A stretch of 64,000 bases of DNA from an uncultured Solirubrobacteraceae bacterium. GTDB taxonomy: Bacteria > Actinomycetota > Thermoleophilia > Solirubrobacterales > Solirubrobacteraceae. The notes under the pieces are model-generated. The model was given only the letters and a program-made list of their open reading frames with translations, made no database searches and was not told the DNA's origin. The position numbers and the translations under genes are program-made. The stretch is from the NCBI GenBank assembly GCA_963838655.1, contig CAWIRW010000018.1, forward strand, positions 83,397 through 147,396, given 5' to 3'. Of this stretch, positions 4,977-50,048 are shown in pieces (positions within the stretch are counted from its first letter, which is position 1; every line of letters starts with the position of its first letter).

Positions 4977-6256
4977 CCACCTCGATCTCCGACGTCCGCT
5001 CCGCCGAGCTCTACCGGCGGGCGGTCAACGTGTTGCCCGGCGGGGTGAACTCGCCGGTGCGCGCGATGCGCGCGATCGGCCGCGACCCGATCTTCATCGA
5101 CCGCGCCGAGGGCGCCGAGCTGATAGACGTCGACGGCAACACGTACGTCGACTACGTCTGCTCGTGGGGCCCGCTGATCCACGGGCACGCGCACCCGGAC
5201 GTCCTCGCAGCCGTGGTGAACGCGGCGGCGCGCGGGACGACGTTCGGCGCCCCGACGGCCGGCGAGGTCGAGCTCGCCGAGCTGGTGTGCGCCCGCATGC
5301 CGGCGGTCGACGTGCTGCGCATGACCTCCTCGGGCACCGAGGCGGCGATGAGCGTCGTGCGGCTCGCGCGCGCCGCCACCGGGCGCGACACCGTGCTCAA
5401 GTTCGCGGGCGCCTACCACGGCCACGTCGACGGGCTGCTCGCGCAGGCCGGCTCCGGCCTCGCCACGCAGGGCATCCCCGCCTCGCCGGGCGTGCCCGCC
5501 GCGGCCGCGGCGCAGACGATCGTGGTGCCGTGGAACGACGAGGCCGCCCTGCGTGCCGCGTTCGCCGAGCACGAGCTCGCCGCCGCGCTGTGTGAGCCCT
5601 ATCCGGCCAACATGGGGCTCGTCCCGCCCGCGCCCGGCTTTCTCGAGCTGCTGCGCGAGCTGTGCACCGCCTCCGGCGCGCTGCTGGTGTTCGACGAGGT
5701 CATCACCGGCTTCCGGATCGCCCGCGGCGGTGCCCAGGAGCTGTGCGACGTGCTGCCCGACCTGACGGTCATGGGCAAGGTGCTGGGCGGGGGCCTTCCG
5801 GCCGCCGCCTACGGCGGGCCGGCGTCGCTCATGAACCTCGTGGCGCCCGCCGGCGACGTCTATCAGGCGGGCACGCTGAGCGGCAACCCGCTGGCCGTGG
5901 CCGCCGGCCGGGCCACGCTCGAGCGGCTCGACGAGCAGTCCTACCTGACGCTGTCGAGCATCACGGCCGAGCTCGCCGACGGCCTGCGCGAGGCAGCGGC
6001 CGGGTGGCCGGTCTCCGTCACCCACACGACCGGGCTGCTGACGGTCTTCTTCGCCGAGCAGGCGCCCACCGACTACGCGGGTGCGGCCGCCTGCGACACC
6101 GAGGCCTACGGTGCCTGGTGCCGCGCGCTGCTGGCACGCGGCGTCTACCCGCCGCCGTCGCAGTTCGAGGCCTGGTTCCCGTCGCTCGCCCACACGAGCG
6201 AGCAGGTCGCCCGCACGGTCGAGGCCGCGGCGGCCGCCTTCAGCGAAATCGCATGA
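4973..6256 (+). CDS. hemL: glutamate-1-semialdehyde 2,1-aminomutase
   Basis: LPGGVNSPVRAMRAIG near the N-terminus and the PLP-lysine context MGKVLGGGLPAAAYGG. The start is proposed at CTG 4973 (CTGA overlap with the upstream stop, GGGAGGAGGA 6 nt upstream) and is uncertain. Confidence 0.88.
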   Translation: MTTSISDVRSAELYRRAVNVLPGGVNSPVRAMRAIGRDPIFIDRAEGAELIDVDGNTYVDYVCSWGPLIHGHAHPDVLAAVVNAAARGTTFGAPTAGEVELAELVCARMPAVDVLRMTSSGTEAAMSVVRLARAATGRDTVLKFAGAYHGHVDGLLAQAGSGLATQGIPASPGVPAAAAAQTIVVPWNDEAALRAAFAEHELAAALCEPYPANMGLVPPAPGFLELLRELCTASGALLVFDEVITGFRIARGGAQELCDVLPDLTVMGKVLGGGLPAAAYGGPASLMNLVAPAGDVYQAGTLSGNPLAVAAGRATLERLDEQSYLTLSSITAELADGLREAAAGWPVSVTHTTGLLTVFFAEQAPTDYAGAAACDTEAYGAWCRALLARGVYPPPSQFEAWFPSLAHTSEQVARTVEAAAAAFSEIA

Positions 6257-24665: not shown

Positions 24666-25166
24666 ATGGGACTCGACCTGCTCCGCCGGATCCGCTGGGG
24701 GAACGTCGGACGGCTCGCGGGAGCGGCCGCGCTGGTTGCCGCCGTGGTGGCCTGGCCGCGCCTCGCGCCACCCGAGCCGGCGTTGCCCGAGCGGGTCGCC
24801 CGGCCGCTCGACGGGCTTGGCGCCGCACCCGCGGCCACGCCTCCGCCCGAGCTGCTGCTCGCGAGGCCGCCGAGGGTGCGCGGGCGGCCCGGCGGCAGGC
24901 CGCGCCGGTCGCATGCCAAGGCGAGGCGCGAGAAGCCCGAGGAGGTGCGGCCGGGTGACGGCGGGCGAGGCGTGAAGCGGCGCCGTCCGCGGCGGACGAG
25001 CGCTCGTCGCGCGCCCGGATCCGGTACCCCGCGCGGGGCACCGCCGAAGAGTCCGCCCGCCGAACCGCCGCCGGTGGGTGGTGGCCGCCGGCGAGACACG
25101 TCCCCGGCCGGCCAGTCGGGTGGAGGCGATCCCGCCGAGACGGAGTTCGGGTTCGAGCGTGGGTGA
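24666..25166 (+). CDS. hypothetical membrane-anchored Pro/Arg-rich protein
   Basis: 166-aa ORF with one N-terminal TM (LAGAAALVAAVVAW) and a low-complexity basic tail. G/C third-position bias looks coding. I recognise no homology. Confidence 0.4.
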   Translation: MGLDLLRRIRWGNVGRLAGAAALVAAVVAWPRLAPPEPALPERVARPLDGLGAAPAATPPPELLLARPPRVRGRPGGRPRRSHAKARREKPEEVRPGDGGRGVKRRRPRRTSARRAPGSGTPRGAPPKSPPAEPPPVGGGRRRDTSPAGQSGGGDPAETEFGFERG

Positions 25167-25170
25167 TGCG

Positions 25171-25514
25171 GACGAACGTCAACTGCGGCTGGGTAGGGAG
25201 TGAGGGAGCCAGCCGCCGCGCGTGGTCAAGCCGGGGTTTCGTGTATTTCGGCGTGTCTGGTCGCCCGGATCCACCTTTGTGCTCTAGACGCGCAGCAAGG
25301 TGTATCTCGATGAAGCGTCGGACCCGAGAACCCAATCCCGCCTTGACGGGGAGTTTCGTGTCAATCGATGCGGACTGATCACCGATCGCCACCTTCGTCT
25401 CTAGACGAGGAACAACGTGGATTTCGGCGTTCGCGCACACGCCGAAGAACGAAACTCCCGCCCGACGGCCGCCGGCTCCCCGACCTCCCTACCCAGCCGC
25501 CGTTGACGTTCGCC
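25171..25514. repeat. 344-bp intergenic element with 30-bp terminal inverted repeats (copy A of an unclassified family)
   Basis: 25171-25200 GACGAACGTCAACTGCGGCTGGGTAGGGAG matches the reverse complement of 25485-25514 at 28/30. The interior holds an imperfect 66-nt direct repeat and several perfect hairpins. A second copy lies at 47811-48128. Confidence 0.75.
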
Positions 25515-25525
25515 GGCGGGCGAAG

Positions 25526-26986
25526 CTACGCCGAGGCCGCCGCGCCGCGAGCCTTGGCCCGGATGTCGGCGATCTGCTCGTCGATCCAGTCCCCCGGATC
25601 GCGCGAGGTCACGATCTCCTTCAGCCCCGCGGCCCGCCTCGCGCGCGACTCGGGTGACATCGTGAGGGCCGCGTAGATCGCGTCGGCGAGCTCCTGCACG
25701 TCGAAGGGGTTCACCGACAAGGCGAACTCGCCCAGCTCCTCGTGCGCGCCCGTGTTCTCGCTCAGGATCGAGACCCCGTCGCGCTCGTTCACCAGCGGCC
25801 CCTCCTTGGCCACCAGGTTCATGCCGTCGAACATCGCGTTGACCATCATCACGTCGTAGTGCTTGTACGAGGCCACCGCCTCTTCCAAGTCATCACGCAG
25901 CTTCAGATCGATCGGCATCCAGTCGGGCGTCCCGTGCCGGTGGTTCACGACCGCCACCAGCGCCTCGATCTTCTCCAGGTACTCGGCGTACTCCGGCACG
26001 TCGGTCCGCGACGGCATGAGCTGGGCGGTGAACGTGATCCGCTCGACGAACTCCGGGTGCTGCTCGAGGAAGATGTCGAACGCCGTGAACCCGCGCAACA
26101 CGTTCTTCGACAGATCCGCTCGGTCCACGCGCAGGATCGAGTAGTCCCGCCGGCGACGCATGACCTGCTCCTCGAACTCCGCCACCCCCGGCCGGCGCGC
26201 CACCGCCTGCGTCGCCTCGTAGTCGATCGGCAGCGGATACGCGCGGACCCACACGTCGCGGTCGCCGAAGTGCACGACGCCGCGCTCCATGTCGACCTCG
26301 AGCTCCATCAGGTCGCGGCAGCACTGGAGGAAGTTGCGCCGGTACGACCGGGTGTGGAAGCCGACGATGTCGTTGGCCAGCAGACCCTCGAAGATCGCCG
26401 TGCGCACCTCGCTCGGGAGCACGCGCCAGGCGTCCGGCTGCGTCCACGGGATGTGCACGAAGTGGTGCAGGAAGACGTCCGGCCGCTCGTGCCGGACCAT
26501 CGCCGGGAGCGTGTACAGGTGGTAGTCGTGGACCATCACCAGGGGCTCGGAGAGGTCCGCGATCTCCTCCAGGACGGCCCGCGCGAGGTCCGCGTTGACG
26601 ACGTTGTACCCGTGATGGAAGGCGTCGACCTCGTGGCGCCGGATGTCCGGCGCGTTGCTCAGGTCCCACAGGTAGTGCTGGATGAACCAGAGCATCGGGT
26701 TGGCGATGATGTTGTAGAAGCCGTCGTAGGCCTCGGGGTCGGAGGCCACGAAGCGCACCTGGTAGGTGCCGCCCTCGGGCGCCTCGACCTCGAACGGCCG
26801 CCCGCCCTCGCGCGAGGACTGCTCGATGTCCCCGTCGGTCATCGCCGAGGCGATCCAGATCGCGTCGCGGTGGGAGGCGAGGCCCGTCAGGGCCGTGACC
26901 AGGCCACCCGTACCGCGCTTGATCGAGCCGTCGTCCTGATACGTGACGGGCCCACGGTTGGAGACGAGCACAAGCGGAGCCGCCAT
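25526..26986 (-). CDS. otsA: alpha,alpha-trehalose-phosphate synthase (GT20)
   Basis: LVLVSNRGP, VHDYHLY and LRVDRADLSKN motifs. Internal ATG 26986 of listed ORF 25526..28009. Confidence 0.9.
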   Translation of the reverse strand: MAAPLVLVSNRGPVTYQDDGSIKRGTGGLVTALTGLASHRDAIWIASAMTDGDIEQSSREGGRPFEVEAPEGGTYQVRFVASDPEAYDGFYNIIANPMLWFIQHYLWDLSNAPDIRRHEVDAFHHGYNVVNADLARAVLEEIADLSEPLVMVHDYHLYTLPAMVRHERPDVFLHHFVHIPWTQPDAWRVLPSEVRTAIFEGLLANDIVGFHTRSYRRNFLQCCRDLMELEVDMERGVVHFGDRDVWVRAYPLPIDYEATQAVARRPGVAEFEEQVMRRRRDYSILRVDRADLSKNVLRGFTAFDIFLEQHPEFVERITFTAQLMPSRTDVPEYAEYLEKIEALVAVVNHRHGTPDWMPIDLKLRDDLEEAVASYKHYDVMMVNAMFDGMNLVAKEGPLVNERDGVSILSENTGAHEELGEFALSVNPFDVQELADAIYAALTMSPESRARRAAGLKEIVTSRDPGDWIDEQIADIRAKARGAAASA

Positions 26987-26988
26987 GA

Positions 26989-28218
26989 CTACAACACCTC
27001 GTGGAAGATCTTCAGGTAGTCGCGCAGGTAGCGCGGGGTGAGGAAGTGCGCGCGCACGTGCTCCTTCCCTGTCCGCCCCAGGGACTTGCCCAGGGCGGGG
27101 TCCTCGAGAATCGCCAGCGTGCGCGCCGCGCACTCCTCCGGGCTGTCGACCAGGTAGCCGGACTCGCCGTCGCTGACCTGGAGCGGGATCCCGCCGACGT
27201 TGCCGCCGATGAACGGCCGGCCCTTCCACAGCGCCTCGGACACGGTCAACCCGAAGCCCTCGCGCGTCGACTTCTGGATCACGACCTCGGCGAGCGACTG
27301 GAAGGCGTTGACCTCGATCGCGCCCACGTTGTTGAAGTTGTTGAGGATGTGGATGTCCGGATCGTCGCCCGCGTGCGCGAGCGTCGAGTTGTAGAAGTCC
27401 CAGCCCTCGGGGTCGTCGGAGGCCATCGAGCCCACGAGCGCGAGCTGCACGTCCGGCCGCGCCTCCTTCACGATGCGGTAGGCGTCGATCACCCCGAGCG
27501 GGTCCTTCCAGGGGTCGAAGCGCGACACCTGGCAGATCATGGGCCGCGACACGTCGATGCCGAACTGCCGGCACACGAACGTCGCGTCCTCGACCGACAG
27601 CGCCATGTTCTTCGGCGCCAGCGGGTCGATCGCCGGCGGCACGATGTTCACTCCGCCGTCGAGCCCGGACGGCACGTAGCCGGCGACGTGGAAGAGCGAC
27701 TGCGGGTAGCGCTCGATGTACGGCAGCAGGCGCTCCATCGTCGCCGGGTTGGGCGTCGAGACGTCGATGTGGCAGCGCCACACCCAGCCCTCCGCCTTCT
27801 CGGGCGCGAGCGACAGGATCGCCGCCGGCTGGGGGTCGTGGACGATGCAGACGTCCCACCCGCGGGACAGCTCGCGCGCGTTCATCTCGTTGTACTGCGA
27901 CCAGGTGGCCCACTGCTCCTCGGTGAGGTCCTGCGGGTTGCCCTGCAGCGCGTTGTGCATGATCTTCGTGGCGTTGAAGAACTCCTCGCGCCCGTAGATC
28001 ACCTGCCACTCGACCTCGAGCCCGACGTCGCGCATCAGCGGCACGAGCGTGTAGAGGATCTCCGATACGCCGCCGCCGAACGCGGTGGCGCTCAGGTGCA
28101 CGACACGCCGGCCCTTGAGCGGCTCGGCCAGCTCGCGGATCTCCTCCACCAGCGGGCGGCCCACGAGGTGCGTGTAATCGGTGAGTGACTTGGCCGGGAG
28201 CGCTACGGGTTGCAGCAC
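26989..28218 (-). CDS. GT4 glycosyltransferase, trehalose synthase (TreT)-like
   Basis: 409 aa. The N-terminal domain RVVHLSATAFGGGVSEIL and C-terminal EGFGLTVSEALWKGRPFIG are typical of TreT-type GT4 enzymes. Its stop lies 2 nt upstream of the otsA start. Confidence 0.7.
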   Translation of the reverse strand: MLQPVALPAKSLTDYTHLVGRPLVEEIRELAEPLKGRRVVHLSATAFGGGVSEILYTLVPLMRDVGLEVEWQVIYGREEFFNATKIMHNALQGNPQDLTEEQWATWSQYNEMNARELSRGWDVCIVHDPQPAAILSLAPEKAEGWVWRCHIDVSTPNPATMERLLPYIERYPQSLFHVAGYVPSGLDGGVNIVPPAIDPLAPKNMALSVEDATFVCRQFGIDVSRPMICQVSRFDPWKDPLGVIDAYRIVKEARPDVQLALVGSMASDDPEGWDFYNSTLAHAGDDPDIHILNNFNNVGAIEVNAFQSLAEVVIQKSTREGFGLTVSEALWKGRPFIGGNVGGIPLQVSDGESGYLVDSPEECAARTLAILEDPALGKSLGRTGKEHVRAHFLTPRYLRDYLKIFHEVL

Positions 28219-46772: not shown

Positions 46773-47797
46773 CCACGGGCGAGCCGCTGCTGGAGATCCG
46801 CGACCTGGTCAAGCACTTCCCGATCCGCCAGGGGTTGCTCCAGCGCCAGGTCGGCGCGGTGCGTGCCGTCGACGGCGTGTCGCTCGACGTGCTGCGCGGC
46901 GAGACGCTGGGGATCGTCGGCGAGTCGGGCTGCGGCAAGTCGACCACCGCGCGGCTGCTCCTGCGCCTGATGGACCCGACGAGCGGCTCGGTCAAGCTCG
47001 ACGGCGAGGAGATCGCCACCGTCAAGGGGCCGCGGCTGAAGGAGCTGCGCCGCGGCATGCAGATGATCTTCCAGGACCCGTACTCGTCGCTGAACCCGCG
47101 CAAGACGGTCGGCACGATCATCTCCGAGCCGTTCGCCATCCACGGGCTGGCCACCGGCGAGGGTGAGCGCAAGCGCACGGTGCAGGACCTGATGGACCGC
47201 GTGGGGCTGAACCCCGAGCACTACAACCGCTACCCGCACGAGTTCTCGGGCGGCCAGCGGCAGCGCATCGGCGTCGCGCGTGCCCTCGCCTTGAAGCCGA
47301 AGGTGATCGTGGCCGACGAGCCGGTGTCCGCGCTCGACGTCTCGATCCAGGCGCAGATCCTCAACCTGCTGCGCGAGCTCCAGCGCGAGATGGGGATCAC
47401 GCTCATCTTCATCGCGCACGACCTGTCGGTGGTCCGCCACATGTGCGATCGGATCGCGGTCATGTACCTCGGCAAGGTCGTCGAGCTGGCCACCAACGAG
47501 CAGCTCTACGCCCACCCGCGGATGCCGTACACGGGCGCGCTGATGTCGGCCGTCCCCGTGCCGCAGCCGCGCCTGGCGGCGGCCAAGAAGCGCCAGATCC
47601 TCGCCGGCGACGTCCCCTCGCCCGCGAACCCGCCGCCGGCCTGCCGCTTCCACACGCGGTGCTGGAAGGCGGAGGAGATCTGCCGCCACGAGGACCCGCC
47701 GCTCGAGGCCAAGGAGGGCGGCAACATCGCCGCCTGCCATTTCCCGCTGACGGACGCGGAAGTGCTCGAGCGCGTGCCTACCGCGAAGACCGCTTAG
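46769..47797 (+). CDS. peptide/nickel ABC transporter ATP-binding protein (DppF/OppF type)
   Basis: [17 protein letters not shown] and [11 protein letters not shown] motifs, C-terminal [12 protein letters not shown] overlap with the preceding gene. Confidence 0.9.
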
Positions 47798-47810
47798 CCG
47801 TTCGTTCCTC

Positions 47811-48128
47811 GGCGAACGTCAACGTCAACGCAACGCGCTGGGTAGGGGAGGGTGAGGGTGCCGGCCGGTGTGCGGAAACCGGACAACCCGTCGCGCGGGC
47901 GGGCGGTTGGCCGGTTGCACCGCCCGCGTCCAGGAAACGGACACGCCAGGATCTCGCGGGCGCGATTGCCGGTTGGTGTACACAAGTGGCCAACCGGGCC
48001 CGTCGAACGGGCCTCGTGTCCACTTGTGCACCACTATCGCGCCTAAGTGGCCAACCACCGCGCGATCGGGGGACCATTGTCCCCTTTCGCACCCCCACTC
48101 TCCCTACCCAGCGCAGTTGACATTCGTC
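47811..48128. repeat. 318-bp intergenic element, copy B of the terminal-inverted-repeat family (inverted relative to copy A)
   Basis: Arms are 47811-47850 and 48098-48128. The reverse complement of the right arm, GACGAATGTCAACTGCGCTGGGTAGGGAGAG, matches copy A's left arm with 1 substitution and 1 gap. The element lies between convergent stops at 47797 and 48139. Confidence 0.75.
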
Positions 48129-48138
48129 GGGGCCAGCA

Positions 48139-48444
48139 CTACCGCCGCAAAGCGAGCCGCGCCAGGCGGTCGTCCCACTCGGCGCCCACGGCGGCCATCC
48201 ACTCCATCGCGTCCACCATCGGGGCGGGAGTGAGCGTGTAGCGCGTCTCCCGCCCCTGGCGGGTCGACTCGACAAGGCCGGCGCTGGAGAGCGCGACGAG
48301 GTGCTTGGCGACGGCCTGGCGGGTGATCGGGAGCTCTCCCGCGAGATGTGATGCGGTCAGGCCGGGCCGCTCGGCGAGCGAGAGCATGACCTCGCGGCGC
48401 GTGGGGTCGGCCAGCGCCCCGAAGACCTCGTTCAGGCCGGGCAC
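48139..48444 (-). CDS. ArsR/SmtB family transcriptional regulator
   Basis: FGALADPTRREVMLSLAERPGLTASHLAGELPITRQAVAKHLVALSSAGLV. GTG 48444 overlaps the upstream SRPBCC gene by 13 nt. Confidence 0.8.
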   Translation of the reverse strand: MPGLNEVFGALADPTRREVMLSLAERPGLTASHLAGELPITRQAVAKHLVALSSAGLVESTRQGRETRYTLTPAPMVDAMEWMAAVGAEWDDRLARLALRR

Positions 48445-48770
48445 AGCGCGGCGGCGGAGGCCAGCGCGGTGAGCTTCGGGCCCCACACCACGTCGTGGCG
48501 CTCCTCGGTCACGACGAACCGCGTGCCCTCGTCGTGGTCTTCGAGCTGCCAGACGACCCGCGAGTCCTCCCAGCTGAACTCGATCAGCTCGCCGGGCTCG
48601 ACGCGCTCGACGACGCCCTCGCGATCGTCGAAGCGCAGCGGCGCGCCCTCCTCGGGCTCGAACTCGACGTCGTCGGCGAGCCACTCGCGCAGCTCGTCGG
48701 GCTCGGTCACCAGCTCCCACGCGCGCTCGCGGGGCACCGGGAGGACGATCTCGCGAGTCACGCAACTCAT
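48432..48770 (-). CDS. SRPBCC (AHSA1/START-like) domain protein
   Basis: 112-aa ORF starting REIVLPVPRERAWELVTEPDELREWLA, typical of SRPBCC proteins. Co-oriented with the ArsR gene and overlapping it. Confidence 0.75.
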   Translation of the reverse strand: MSCVTREIVLPVPRERAWELVTEPDELREWLADDVEFEPEEGAPLRFDDREGVVERVEPGELIEFSWEDSRVVWQLEDHDEGTRFVVTEERHDVVWGPKLTALASAAALCPA

Positions 48771-48820
48771 GGGTTGCGCATAGTACCATGGACGAAACGC
48801 GCAACCGGTTGCGGTTGCCT
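48761..48820. promoter_or_regulatory. cluster of GTTGCG(C)/GCGCAAC half-sites in the divergent SRPBCC-ArsR / clpP control region
   Basis: CGCAAC 48761-48766, GTTGCGC 48773-48779, GCGCAAC 48799-48805, GTTGCG 48808-48813 and GTTGCC 48815-48820. GGTTGCGC-N19-GCGCAACC is a perfect 8-bp inverted repeat. TACTAT -10-like box on the minus strand. Confidence 0.4.
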
Positions 48821-48843
48821 AACAGGAGGAAAGGAAGACACCC

Positions 48844-49488
48844 ATGCCCCTGGTTCCCGTCGTCGTCCAGCAGGACTCTCGTGGCGAGCGCTCGTTCGAC
48901 ATCTACTCCCGGCTGCTGCGCGAGCGCGTGGTGTTCCTCGGGAGCCCCGTCGACGACGACGTCGCCAACCTCGTCGTCGCCCAGCTCCTGCACCTCGAGG
49001 CCGAGGACCCGGAGAAGGACATCCAGCTCTACGTCAACTGCCCGGGCGGCGTGGTCTACGCCGGGCTGGCGATCTACGACACGATGCGCTTCATCAAGCC
49101 CGACGTGGCGACGACGTGCTGCGGGATCGCGATGTCGATGGGCTCGCTGATCCTGGCCGGCGGCGCTCCCGGCAAGCGGGCGGCGCTGCCGAACTCGCGC
49201 ATCCTGGTCCACCAGCCGAGCGGCGGCTTCCAGGGGCAGGCGACCGACATCCAGATCCATGCGCGCGAGGCGCTCGCGCTGCGCCGCCGGATCGAGGAGA
49301 TCTACGCCGAGCACACCGGCCGGCCGGTCGACGAGGTCTCCGACGCGCTCGAGCGCGACCGCTTCTTCACGCCCGAGGAGGCGCGCGACTACGGGCTCGT
49401 GGATCGGGTGATGGCGAGCCGCAACGGCTACGTGCCGTCGTCCTCGTACAGCGACTCGCGGGCGAGCTCGCCGGCCGAGTCGTCGTAG
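48844..49488 (+). CDS. clpP: ATP-dependent Clp protease proteolytic subunit
   Basis: AGGAGG RBS. Catalytic contexts GIAMSMGS (Ser) and ILVHQPSGG (His). The last ~20 codons overlap a convergent ORF and may not be authentic. Confidence 0.92.
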
Positions 49489-50048
49489 AGGGCGATCTCG
49501 AGGTAGTCCTCGCGGTAGGCGTCGGGCGCGATCAGCGTGTAGCGGTTCTCGGCCACCCGGCACTGGTCGACGGTCAGGCCCGCCAGCTCGGCGGTGGCCG
49601 TCGCGCCGCCGCGCACGAGCGGGACGCCCCACACGAGCGTCATCGCCGCGACCTTGCCGTTCTCGCCGCGCCAGCCGCCGATCACCTCTTCGCAGAGGTC
49701 CATCTCCCACTCGGGGTGGCGGTCGGAGGTCTCGTCGGTGAAGTCGGCCCACGAGTAGAAGTCGCCGGGCTCGGACTCCTCGTCGCCGGGGGTGAAGGAG
49801 ACGTAGCCGAAGAGGTCGAGCCCGTTGCTCGTGCGCGCCGTGACGGGGACGAACGTGCGTCCCGCCCACGTGCGGTCGGGGAACCACGTCATCGAGCCGG
49901 GATCGCCGAGCTCGGTGCCCTCGGTGTCGATCCGCAGGGCGGCGGCGAGGAACTCGGCCTGCAGCGTGTCGGCCCAGCGGCCGTACGGCAGCGGGTCCTG
50001 CGGGGGCTCGGCGGCGAAGCGGCAGACGAAGCGTTCCTCGGGCGGCAT
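49428..50048 (-). CDS. hypothetical acidic protein (206 aa)
   Basis: Long ORF with coding-type G/C third-position bias and a non-repetitive composition. I recognise no family. Confidence 0.55.

Follow-up and report, generated by a model that had tools for sequence, protein, structure and literature searches.

The window analysed here, a stretch of 64,000 nucleotides from an uncultured Solirubrobacteraceae bacterium, contains a 344-bp feature at 25171-25514 that is one member of a dispersed repeat family. We call this member copy A; its sequence and coordinates are as given in a preliminary description made from the DNA alone. To its left lies a small ORF on the + strand (24666..25166), whose TGA stop (25164..25166) ends 4 nt before the feature and stands 10 nt before the G of the GAACG in the left arm. 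To its right lies otsA, encoding trehalose-6-phosphate synthase on the - strand, whose TAG stop (25526..25528, CTA as written on the + strand) follows the feature after 11 nt and stands 17 nt outside the GAACG box of the right arm. Both gaps had been measured correctly, and the identity of otsA is confirmed by a match to Pfam GT20 (E 3e-107). The small ORF has no Pfam match, and its C-terminus, EFGFE-x-G followed by the stop, is conserved beside otsA in about 30 related contigs, while in the related locus L112 the ORF next to otsA is a called gene. Because the small ORF is conserved and called in relatives, the gap is truly convergent, as had been proposed, and the alternative of a tandem gap running from otsA to rpsF was dropped.

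An inverted-repeat search places the arms of copy A at 25168-25200 and 25485-25517, with 33 nt each, 91% complementarity and 284 nt between them. The proposed 30-bp inverted arms hold up well, given that the 30-mer finds the other arm with 2 mismatches and that 0.00 such matches are expected from 100 shuffles, and pairing does continue further inward. Together with an arm profile, the full left arm extends over 25168..25217 on the + strand (nhmmer match of 40 bits) and the full right arm over 25468..25517 on the - strand (45 bits). Two near-invariant boxes lie in the left arm, GAACGTCAAC (25174-25183) and GCTGGGTAGGG (25188-25198), and the second of them contains a TAG within the arm (25194-25196); the corresponding boxes of the right arm, read on the - strand, are CCCTACCCAGC at 25487-25497 and GTTGACGTTC at 25502-25511. 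Between the arms lies an interior of what we term class A (25218..25467). It was described as visibly less GC-rich than its surroundings, and indeed its GC content is 56-65% versus 72-85% in the flanks. It consists of hairpin modules of about 59-61 nt, which show up as direct repeats at 117-nt spacing, with TCTAGA in two apical hairpins (around 25270-25312 and 25386-25425) and with stems of the type TCAAGSCGGG / CCCGSCTTGA. As had been noted, it holds no ORF that looks like a gene, and no element of the family has an ORF showing a coding signature. The predicted fold is a hairpin of about 350 nt closed by the arms, with -192 kcal/mol on the + strand (z = -8.5) and -199 kcal/mol on the - strand (z = -9.5).

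The label copy A was apt, as the window holds a second element, copy B, at about 47811-48129, where the arm HMM matches at 47809-47864 (+) and 48089-48131 (-). The two copies have their arms in common and their interiors are unrelated; that of copy B belongs to a class B built on AAGTGGCCAACC repeats at 61-nt spacing. Copy B is likewise bordered by stop codons, on the left by the TAG (47795-47797) of an oligopeptide-type ABC ATPase gene and on the right by the TAG (48139-48141, - strand) of an ArsR-type regulator gene. It measures 312 nt, versus 204 nt in the orthologous elements of loci L069 and L078. When copies A and B were folded on each strand, z ranged from -8 to -9.5, both strands being equally stable. 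That copy B is inverted with respect to L069 was considered and not retained, with 109 matches in reverse complement versus 101 in direct orientation.

Arms, interiors and spread of the family

A genome scan showed that further copies exist well beyond the window: among the matches listed, the arms recur at more than 104 loci in 34 Solirubrobacteraceae species, a total that is a lower bound, and a single genome contributes up to at least 15 sampled loci. The sampled loci amount to about 0.8 Mb from species-level assemblies, all of them MAGs of Solirubrobacteraceae type. Within them, the arm-profile search returned 208 arm matches, nearly all in inward-facing +/- pairs, and 87 such pairs span 66-453 nt end to end. 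Elements range from 61 to about 450 nt, the smallest (L012, 61 nt) consisting of two arms and nothing else. The whole arm is about 50 bp long and its core is a bipartite 25-nt sequence, GAACGTCAAC-N3-4-GCTGGGTAGGG. Conservation per position is 92-100% in the boxes and 30-70% outside them, the outermost 8 nt being the least conserved part. Arms are thus constant in sequence, and across 74 elements no covariation or compensatory change was seen between the two arms of an element; an early hint of arm-to-arm covariation, or of a fixed polarity of G-arm and T-arm, came from a small sample and vanished with the 74 elements. Arm variants also showed no orientation bias relative to the gene. Homology searches of plasmids, phages and viral contigs gave no match to the element, and as far as sampled the family is confined to Solirubrobacteraceae.

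The interiors are as variable as the arms are constant. They measure from 0 to about 350 bp, are composed of hairpin modules of about 60 nt and fall into at least 10 classes, the larger ones with 13, 8, 7, 7 and 5 members, each class being common to several genomes. Class A, for example, is also present in L011, L016, L017, L027, L070, L090 and L091, and in L016 its 61-nt modules stand five in tandem. The succession of four + arms and then four - arms in L016 might be taken for nested self-insertion, but the left and right linkers do not complement each other and the periods are unequal (59 versus 53 nt); the series is an independent tandem amplification. Orthologous elements differ in length, not only for copy B but also at another site (288 versus about 224 nt). 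The clearest case of turnover is provided by L106 and L109, which are 99.4% identical outside the element and have identical arms and junctions, and yet their interiors show 80% identity to the reverse complement versus 63% in direct orientation, with the central loop replaced. In a further contig encoding the same OtsA protein, the orientation of the interior is unchanged. Among class A copies, the apical TCTAGA loops and the central mismatches occur in both orientations.

Despite this turnover, pairing is kept. Pairs with double changes in the interior hairpins numbered 16 and 18, versus 4-8 in shifted controls, and in a separate alignment 9/70 interior pairs carried compensatory changes. 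The covariation check proposed earlier gave a divided answer, with compensatory pairs in the interior stems and none in the arms. We show here that the interiors of close relatives differ by exchange, by their number of modules and by inversion, and that the hairpins in them stay paired all the same. The compensatory changes could reflect a DNA process that makes palindromes symmetrical instead of selection on RNA.

Gene ends, stop codons and the otsA junction

It was asked at the outset whether such elements always occupy convergent gaps. With gene strand called by the criterion GC1 > GC2, only 21/60 gaps are convergent and 39/60 are tandem, but none (0/60) is divergent. Arms stand at a median of 8 nt from the upstream stop, versus about 33 nt from the next gene start. 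Genes adjacent to an arm end in TAG in 63/95 cases, versus 202/619 of other genes (OR 4.1, p 6e-10). Stops near arms peak at positions -10 to -12, where 28 TAG and 4 TGA were counted, and the TAG excess is strongest at 13 nt or less from the arm. A second peak is formed by the arm-internal TAG at +20 (13 cases), whereas only 1-3 ORFs continue through the two frames of the arm that are open. Elements are thus restricted to the 3' ends of genes, the stop is preferentially TAG and the arm itself sometimes supplies it. Some proteins have a C-terminus, and some genes a stop codon, that stems from the element. Either a target preference or an element-borne stop combined with survivorship may account for the TAG bias.

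Comparison of the orthologous otsA junction among relatives provided the empty sites that had been looked for. In six of them (L105, L110, L116, L125, L155 and L117) the junction is empty and the two stops overlap as CTAG or CTAA. Remnants of an element are found in L107 and L108, and L126 reads TAGCTAGCTA at this junction. The site is filled in the window, in L106/L109, in L112 and in L119, with interior class and junction sequence differing between them, and the element in L112 has lost its right arm. The closest relatives of every filled lineage have an empty junction. CTAG stands on both sides of the insert in L106, L109 and L108, whereas the second junction of the window copy and of L119 is neither TA nor CTAG. 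We thus demonstrate that orthologous sites have gained or lost the element; the otsA pattern may alternatively reflect repeated deletion from an ancient insertion. Since the element is missing from many orthologous junctions and its remnants decay, no individual copy is indispensable.

Mobility, transcript ends and rival explanations

The preliminary description had offered, among other readings, a MITE-like and a REP/BIME-like repeat. The repeat character stands, with multiple copies, a location at 3' ends and presence or absence at orthologous sites, but strict membership in either group does not. We favour, as the more probable reading, that copy A belongs to a dispersed non-coding palindromic family that is recombining and non-autonomous and would act as a hairpin at the 3' ends of genes. 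A putative trans-acting protein would recognise the arm boxes and spread the element or recombine it. For this step, a single-strand (HUH) mechanism like that of REP/RAYT or TIRYT, or recombination between copies, would be preferred over a MITE moved by DDE cut-and-paste, because target-site duplications are not detectable. Genes reading into the element may carry it in the 3' UTR of their transcripts, where so long a hairpin would form a 3'-end barrier, be it as an mRNA stabiliser, as a target of RNase III or by insulating convergent transcription. A role of this kind has been proposed for REP/BIME, Correia/ERIC and mycobacterial TRIT elements. Selection would presumably purge insertions that disturb promoters or permit ribosomes to read through the arm.

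A classical DDE-type MITE, IS630/Tc1-like or IS5-like, integrating at TA or CTAG, would share many of these features, and yet we regard it as quite unlikely. TA is the target of IS630-family elements (PMC2170065). In a genome of 72% GC, TA and CTAG sites are concentrated in TAG and TAA stop codons, and an element starting with G after a duplicated TA would restore TAG on both sides; the sharp TAG excess within 13 nt of the arm is in line with this. The same is true of the inverted termini, the small size, the lack of an ORF, the GC-poorer interior, the high copy number and the empty otsA junctions reading CTAG, and TAGCTAGCTA in L126 could be a footprint. The paired CTAG flanks of L106, L109 and L108 also fit, but these could be the two genes' own stops. 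As had been noted for copy A, there is no target-site duplication: in a systematic scan of 74 elements, direct repeats of 2-8 bp at offsets of 0-15 occurred at the frequency expected from shuffling, and TA at symmetrical positions on both sides was observed 5 times versus 4.5 expected. A duplication of TA or CTAG as a general feature is contradicted by both counts, and locally by the second junctions of the window copy and L119. In addition, the outermost 8 nt of the arm being the least conserved is the reverse of what DDE transposon ends show. The earlier remark that no transposase is nearby extends to the sampled loci, about 0.8 Mb of which contained no arm-flanked transposase or RAYT gene and no cognate IS with the same ends. 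For solo arms, a degenerate partner arm was found and no transposase was adjacent. The 1.4-kb arm pair of L019, a candidate for the autonomous parent, turned out to be a class A element into which an IS481-family IS, bounded by unrelated TGTAG...CTACA ends of its own, had inserted secondarily at TCTAGA. A textbook MITE is disfavoured, as neither a target-site duplication in the 74 elements nor a cognate IS in the sampled loci was found.

The turnover of interiors raises the idea of a programmed recombination module, an inverton or cassette in which a recombinase acting at the arms flips or swaps the interior and thereby switches a function, for example an internal promoter or the polarity of a terminator. 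The inverted interior and replaced loop between the 99.4%-identical strains, the class A loops and mismatches in both orientations and the different interior classes at the same site in related genomes would all agree with it. We nevertheless hold such a module to be very improbable. The further contig encoding this OtsA protein keeps the orientation, so flipping is not frequent; the interiors are near-palindromic, so inversion alters little; neither an internal promoter consensus nor a recombinase or invertase gene was seen in or beside the elements; and inverted repeats of 45 nt explain occasional inversion, by homologous recombination or template switching between them.

As for transcript ends, a host-domesticated, factor-dependent signal analogous to TRIT is unlikely in our estimate. 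A host protein would bind the arm boxes, as dsRNA or DNA, and terminate or process the mRNA past the stop, the repeats being kept for their usefulness and not for movement. The constancy of the two boxes over 34 species while flanks and interior turn over, the tight spacing to stop codons, the zero copies in divergent gaps and the rarity of ORFs reading through arms speak in its favour, and the authors of the TRIT study inferred likewise for Mycobacterium, suspecting a factor that recognises the conserved duplex (PMC3152330). But many junctions lack an element, copies decay in L107 and L108 and have lost an arm in L112, and the arm variants are indifferent to gene orientation. The canonical intrinsic (Rho-independent) terminator, a GC-rich hairpin with a U-tract, is also not what is found: no T-run follows either arm of copy A, no promoter or terminator consensus was found in the element, and around copy A nothing looked like a terminator apart from one 5-bp stem in the interior, a match at chance level. 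The bidirectional terminator that had been envisaged is putative, and is backed by neither a U-tract nor a consensus. TRITs themselves rarely coincide with mapped 3' ends, 2-4% of mapped termini being overlapped in M. tuberculosis (bioRxiv 10.1101/2022.06.01.494293), and a terminator role is therefore weak by analogy.

The remaining suggestion, a discrete structured RNA gene of about 340 nt with a long closing helix, is extremely unlikely. Its attractions are the very stable fold (z about -9) and the compensatory changes in interior stems. However, the fold is equally good on both strands, lengths spread over 61-450 nt with unrelated interiors whose class, length and orientation vary even where the copies are orthologous, the closing helix is sequence-invariant and without covariation, and no promoter was found. 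A search of copies A and B against Rfam 15 gave nothing at E <= 10 except a chance-level nhaA-II (E 5.4); at gathering level, no match covers an element, be it of the window or of the 18 loci searched.

Coming back to the favoured reading of a recombining palindromic family, its most far-reaching form would have GAACGTCAAC-N4-GCTGGGTAGGG as the site of a dedicated protein that both places hairpins at TAG stops and exchanges or inverts interior cassettes, a proposal that we consider decidedly improbable. If true, it would amount to a genome-wide, sequence-specific 3'-end system linked to stop codons and spreading like a mobile element, combining a TRIT-like factor-dependent terminator with REP-like HUH mobility and cassette shuffling, and an insertion specificity for TAG would be new.

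Relation to known repeat systems

Nearly all that is known of the Solirubrobacteraceae, actinobacteria abundant in soil, comes from MAGs, and to our knowledge their non-coding genome is essentially unannotated. A substantial part of the long "empty" gaps between their convergent or tandem genes is probably made up of the present family, and its members are long, near-perfect palindromes whose length varies between strains, which is relevant to annotation. A literature search on Solirubrobacter repeats found nothing. The family is new and previously undescribed, but its kind is familiar from REP/BIME, BOX, MITE and TRIT, and it is no new kind of system. The long-standing question about REP, TRIT and BOX-type repeats, whether they are selfish DNA, host 3'-end signals or both, finds a tractable test case in near-invariant 25-nt boxes combined with exchangeable, structure-keeping interiors and a strong link to TAG stops, and the boxes offer a concrete bait sequence for finding a putative recognising protein.

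REP dimers or BIMEs are the closest in several respects, being high-copy extragenic palindromes arranged as inverted pairs with variable spacers, folding into one large stem-loop and located downstream of coding regions, between unidirectional and convergent ORFs (PMC3733652). As with GTAG REPs, whose termini often provide the TAG stop of the flanking ORF (PMC3733652), there is no target-site duplication, and the arm contains both the CGTC and the GTAG tetranucleotide that tag two REP super-families. However, these lie inside the paired boxes of the arm, whereas the REP tag lies in an unpaired tail, and a single arm is not a self-folding palindrome of 20-40 bp: for 12 arms folded as DNA, z ranged from -2.2 to +2.6 and was mostly positive, so we rejected arms as REP units. 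The spacers, up to about 350 bp, are themselves modular repeats, unlike those of REP/BIME, and no RAYT or TIRYT gene was seen with the family in the sampled loci, in contrast to RAYT- or TIRYT-associated TIR repeats. The host also belongs to an actinobacterial family outside the REP survey of Di Nocera et al. 2013, the text of which names neither Actinobacteria nor Conexibacter nor Rubrobacter (PMC3733652).

The other systems each share a part of the picture. Correia/NEMIS of Neisseria and ERIC/YPAL of enterobacteria have long TIRs, form one hairpin over the whole element, lie near genes and are present or absent between strains; they are TA-targeting MITEs that are co-transcribed and alter mRNA processing and stability through RNase III (PMC2649163, PMC2229807). 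Unlike them, with their regular TA duplication and conserved interior of fixed length, the present elements have no detectable duplication and an interior that varies in class and length. Streptococcus BOX and SPRITE repeats (Croucher et al. 2011, PMC3049150) are modular in the form A-(B)n-C, with end modules that pair and inner modules that fold by themselves in tandem; they differ in length between strains at the same locus, are enriched downstream of CDS and likewise have neither a clear TSD nor a dedicated transposase. In our family, by contrast, both end modules are the same sequence in inverted orientation, the interior comes in many unrelated classes instead of a single boxB, the host is a high-GC actinobacterium and sequence similarity is absent, so the analogy is one of architecture only. 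TRIT, the "Tuberculosis Rho-independent terminator" (Gardner et al. 2011), resembles the family by its description, as a sequence-conserved, bidirectional palindrome of about 150 copies, restricted to a lineage of actinobacterial hosts and held at a narrow position relative to stops, around -8 and overlapping gene ends (PMC3152330). TRIT is, however, a short single hairpin of Mycobacterium, whereas the family described here occurs in Solirubrobacteraceae and sets 50-bp arms around a variable modular interior.

Copy A and its neighbouring genes

The element at 25171-25514, copy A, has the sequence that the preliminary description reported, and a repeat search of the window recovered its inverted arms as 33-nt stretches at 25168-25200 and 25485-25517 that are 91% complementary. 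The 30-mer of one arm recurs only in its partner, with 0.00 matches expected from shuffles. The fold is a single long hairpin with internal branches (-192 kcal/mol, z = -8.5 on one strand; -199 kcal/mol, z = -9.5 on the other), and the interior is indeed poorer in GC than its surroundings (56-65% versus 72-85% in the flanks). The right-hand neighbour is otsA (GT20, E 3e-107), and copy A fills the convergent gap, from 4 nt past one stop to 11 nt short of the other, since the left-hand ORF 24666-25166 (+) is real: its C-terminus, EFGFE-x-G*, and its convergence with otsA are conserved in ~30 related contigs, and L112 has it as a called gene.

This ORF encodes an Arg/Gly/Pro-rich protein of 166 aa that matched no Pfam domain; it lies upstream of the rpsF-ssb-rpsR operon, a position conserved like its convergence with otsA, and the EFGFE motif is kept across many Solirubrobacteraceae contigs. 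The mechanically called 827-aa ORF of otsA (25526-28009, -) is over-extended, with the GT20 domain beginning at residue 347; the otsA orthologues have 486 aa and are preceded, with a 1-nt overlap, by a TreT-like GT1 gene. ORF 48139-49887 is likewise over-extended and corresponds to an ArsR-type gene of ~100 aa.

Conserved arms and exchangeable interiors

Further copies exist. Copy B (47811-48129), flanked by an ABC-ATPase gene and the ArsR-type gene, has the same arms and an unrelated interior, and a scan of one genome per species with the pattern CGAAYGTCAAC-N2-14-GCTGGGTAGGG gave at least 104 loci. All of the matches listed come from Solirubrobacteraceae-type MAGs (at least 34 assemblies, up to 15 sampled loci per genome). 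In the sampled loci an arm profile found 208 arm copies, nearly all in inward-facing +/- pairs that delimit elements of 61 to ~450 nt, the lengths peaking broadly at 145-225 nt; the shortest, in L012, consists of two arms and nothing else. The arm boxes GAACGTCAAC and GCTGGGTAGGG are conserved at 92-100% per position, against merely 30-70% for the rest of the arm (the 3-4-nt linker, outer 8 nt and inner 25 nt). Since the variable positions show no covariation between the two arms of an element, the arms are constrained as sequence, beyond the helix alone. Single arms do not self-fold. Some elements have asymmetric arms, because apparently solo arms (L058, L094, L020, L013, L006) have on their inner side a variant partner that the profile overlooked, CTCCCT(C/T)AATGC...GTTGA instead of CTCCCTACCCAGC...GTTGAC. 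At L089 1258-1592 the inverted repeat runs at least 17-25 nt past the arms (CCTCCGGCCGGCGTGCCCGACGGGC / GCCCGTCGGGCACGCCAGCCGGAGG); here the element lies within a larger palindrome, which may be a hairpin that was there before it.

Among the interiors, no fewer than 10 classes can be distinguished, each common to several loci and genomes (n=8 for the class of copy A, n=7 for that of copy B). Class A is built of hairpin modules of ~59-61 nt, marked in copy A by repeats spaced 117 nt. Interior modules retain pairing despite sequence change, with 16 and 18 double-changed pairs in two clusters versus 4-8 in shifted controls; an alignment tool counted 9/70 pairs. Arms and modules grow by tandem duplication, as is evident at L016 6447-7229: on the left, a canonical arm follows three variant arms in tandem (GGGTGAGGAGG, period 59 nt); on the right stand four canonical arms in tandem (period 53-61 nt); the linkers are non-complementary, and the two sides enclose five tandem 61-nt modules of class A. 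At L019 6395-7796 an insertion sequence of the IS481 family (367-aa transposase, rve + LZ_Tnp_IS481; ends TGTAGGACC...GGAACTACA) interrupts a class-A element exactly at TCTAGA in an interior-hairpin loop, with TCTAGA duplicated. This makes the TCTAGA loops of class A, of which copy A has two, apparent targets of IS481. This insertion also rules out the 1.4-kb arm pair of L019 as an autonomous partner; none was found in the sampled loci, where solo arms have degenerate partners.

Stop codons and turnover at orthologous sites

With gene strand assigned by the GC3/GC1/GC2 signature, 60 elements had a called gene on either side; 21 of them occupy convergent gaps, 39 occupy tandem gaps and 0 occupy divergent ones. 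In tandem gaps the element begins a median of 8 nt (IQR 4-13) after the upstream stop, leaving ~20-60 nt before the next gene. The element-adjacent stop is TAG in 63/95 cases versus 202/619 for the other genes of these loci (OR 4.1, p 6e-10). Measured from the G of GAACG, stop positions have one maximum at -10 to -12 (TAG 28, TGA 4) and another at -4, overlapping the arm; in 13 cases a TAG within GGGTAGGG of the arm itself serves as stop, and only 1-3 ORFs continue through the arm's two open frames. The TAG excess could reflect an insertion preference for TA/TAG, or an element-borne stop plus survivorship of insertions that end an ORF at the arm. The termini of GTAG-tagged REPs likewise often provide the TAG stop of a flanking ORF (PMC3733652), and mycobacterial TRITs share the narrow spacing from the stop (PMC3152330). 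RNA genes, not just protein-coding ones, can adjoin elements, since the element at L025 5104-5301 ends 21 nt ahead of a bacterial large SRP RNA gene (5323-5588; Rfam RF01854, 175 bits). The c-di-AMP (ydaO-type) riboswitches at L016 5600-5748 and L027 4661-4818, ~0.9-1.2 kb from elements, are probably unrelated to the repeat.

The otsA 3' junction was recovered from 88 related contigs, and the states given here are those of contigs retaining the convergent gene. Six junctions are empty (L105 3958-3966, L110 2958-2966, L116, L125, L155, L117): their two stops, on opposite strands, overlap within CTAG (CTAA for L117), which leaves an intergenic distance of zero. Elsewhere the gap measures 13-52 nt, remnants are present in L107 and L108, and the junction is filled in L106/L109, L112, L119 and the window, with differing junction sequences and interior classes. 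In each case the closest relatives of filled lineages (91-93% otsA DNA identity) are empty. This favours gain having occurred repeatedly at a single tiny junction, with recurrent loss as the less simple alternative. Outside the element, L106 and L109 share 99.4% identity, and their arms and junctions are identical. Comparison of the two 100-nt interiors gives 80% identity when one is reverse-complemented versus 63% when both are read directly, and the central 25-nt loop differs; a third contig shares the orientation of L109. Copy B is 312 nt long in the window, and its orthologues in L069 and L078, with 90% identical flanks, have 204 nt and a rearranged interior. Thus, interiors are exchanged, resized or flipped while the arms stay.

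The L126 junction has the sequence TAGCTAGCTA, possibly a footprint or else a small duplication. In L118 (~1843-1968) and L130 (~850-1050) the otsA junction is taken up by another palindromic family, built of CGTCAACGCCGG / CCGGCGTTGACG boxes that alternate in orientation. This family has a CGTCAAC core in common with the arms of the present one, which suggests, from the shared motif, a wider superfamily of GTCAAC-box repeats.

Nature of the element

The element is a multi-copy, lineage-restricted palindromic repeat of the TIR type. Orthologous sites record both its gain and its loss, with arms conserved as sequence and interiors that recombine, and it is tolerated or selected only directly downstream of stop codons. 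The preliminary description had offered three readings: a MITE-like element, a REP/BIME-like structure or a ~340-nt structured RNA. The last found no counterpart in Rfam, where neither the window nor the elements of 18 loci matched a family at gathering level; with the cut-off relaxed to E <= 10, copy A still had no match and copy B one chance-level match (nhaA-II, E 5.4). The MITE-like reading holds for behaviour and fails for strict membership, as no target-site duplication of 2-8 bp was detected at any offset 0-15 in 74 elements, and TA stands symmetrically on both sides of elements at chance level only. In the same way, the element behaves like REPs/BIMEs and is not a strict REP, its arm being no palindrome.

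A putative trans-acting protein may recognise the bipartite box of the arm, and DDE transposition would account less well for spread without target-site duplication than an HUH (RAYT/TIRYT-like) or a recombinational mechanism. In RNA form the element would fold into a 3'-UTR hairpin, which could act as a stabiliser, processing site or insulator. No sigma-70-like promoter was found, nor any hairpin-plus-T-run terminator at the arms. The case for a terminator is weak, because the U-tract is absent and TRIT, the closest analogue, rarely coincides with mapped termini (only 2-4% in M. tuberculosis; bioRxiv 10.1101/2022.06.01.494293).

Plasmid, phage and viral collections held nothing similar, literature searches found no published description of Solirubrobacter repeats, and a MITE survey of 183,232 genomes does not mention the Solirubrobacteraceae clade. 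The element is a new family within a well-known kind, distinguished by near-invariant bipartite arms, many exchangeable modular interiors and a strong association with TAG. In behaviour it resembles REP dimers/BIMEs and TIRtron repeats (PMC3733652), TRIT (PMC3152330), BOX (PMC3049150) and the Correia/ERIC MITEs (PMC2649163, PMC2229807), with no evidence of relatedness to any of them in sequence.
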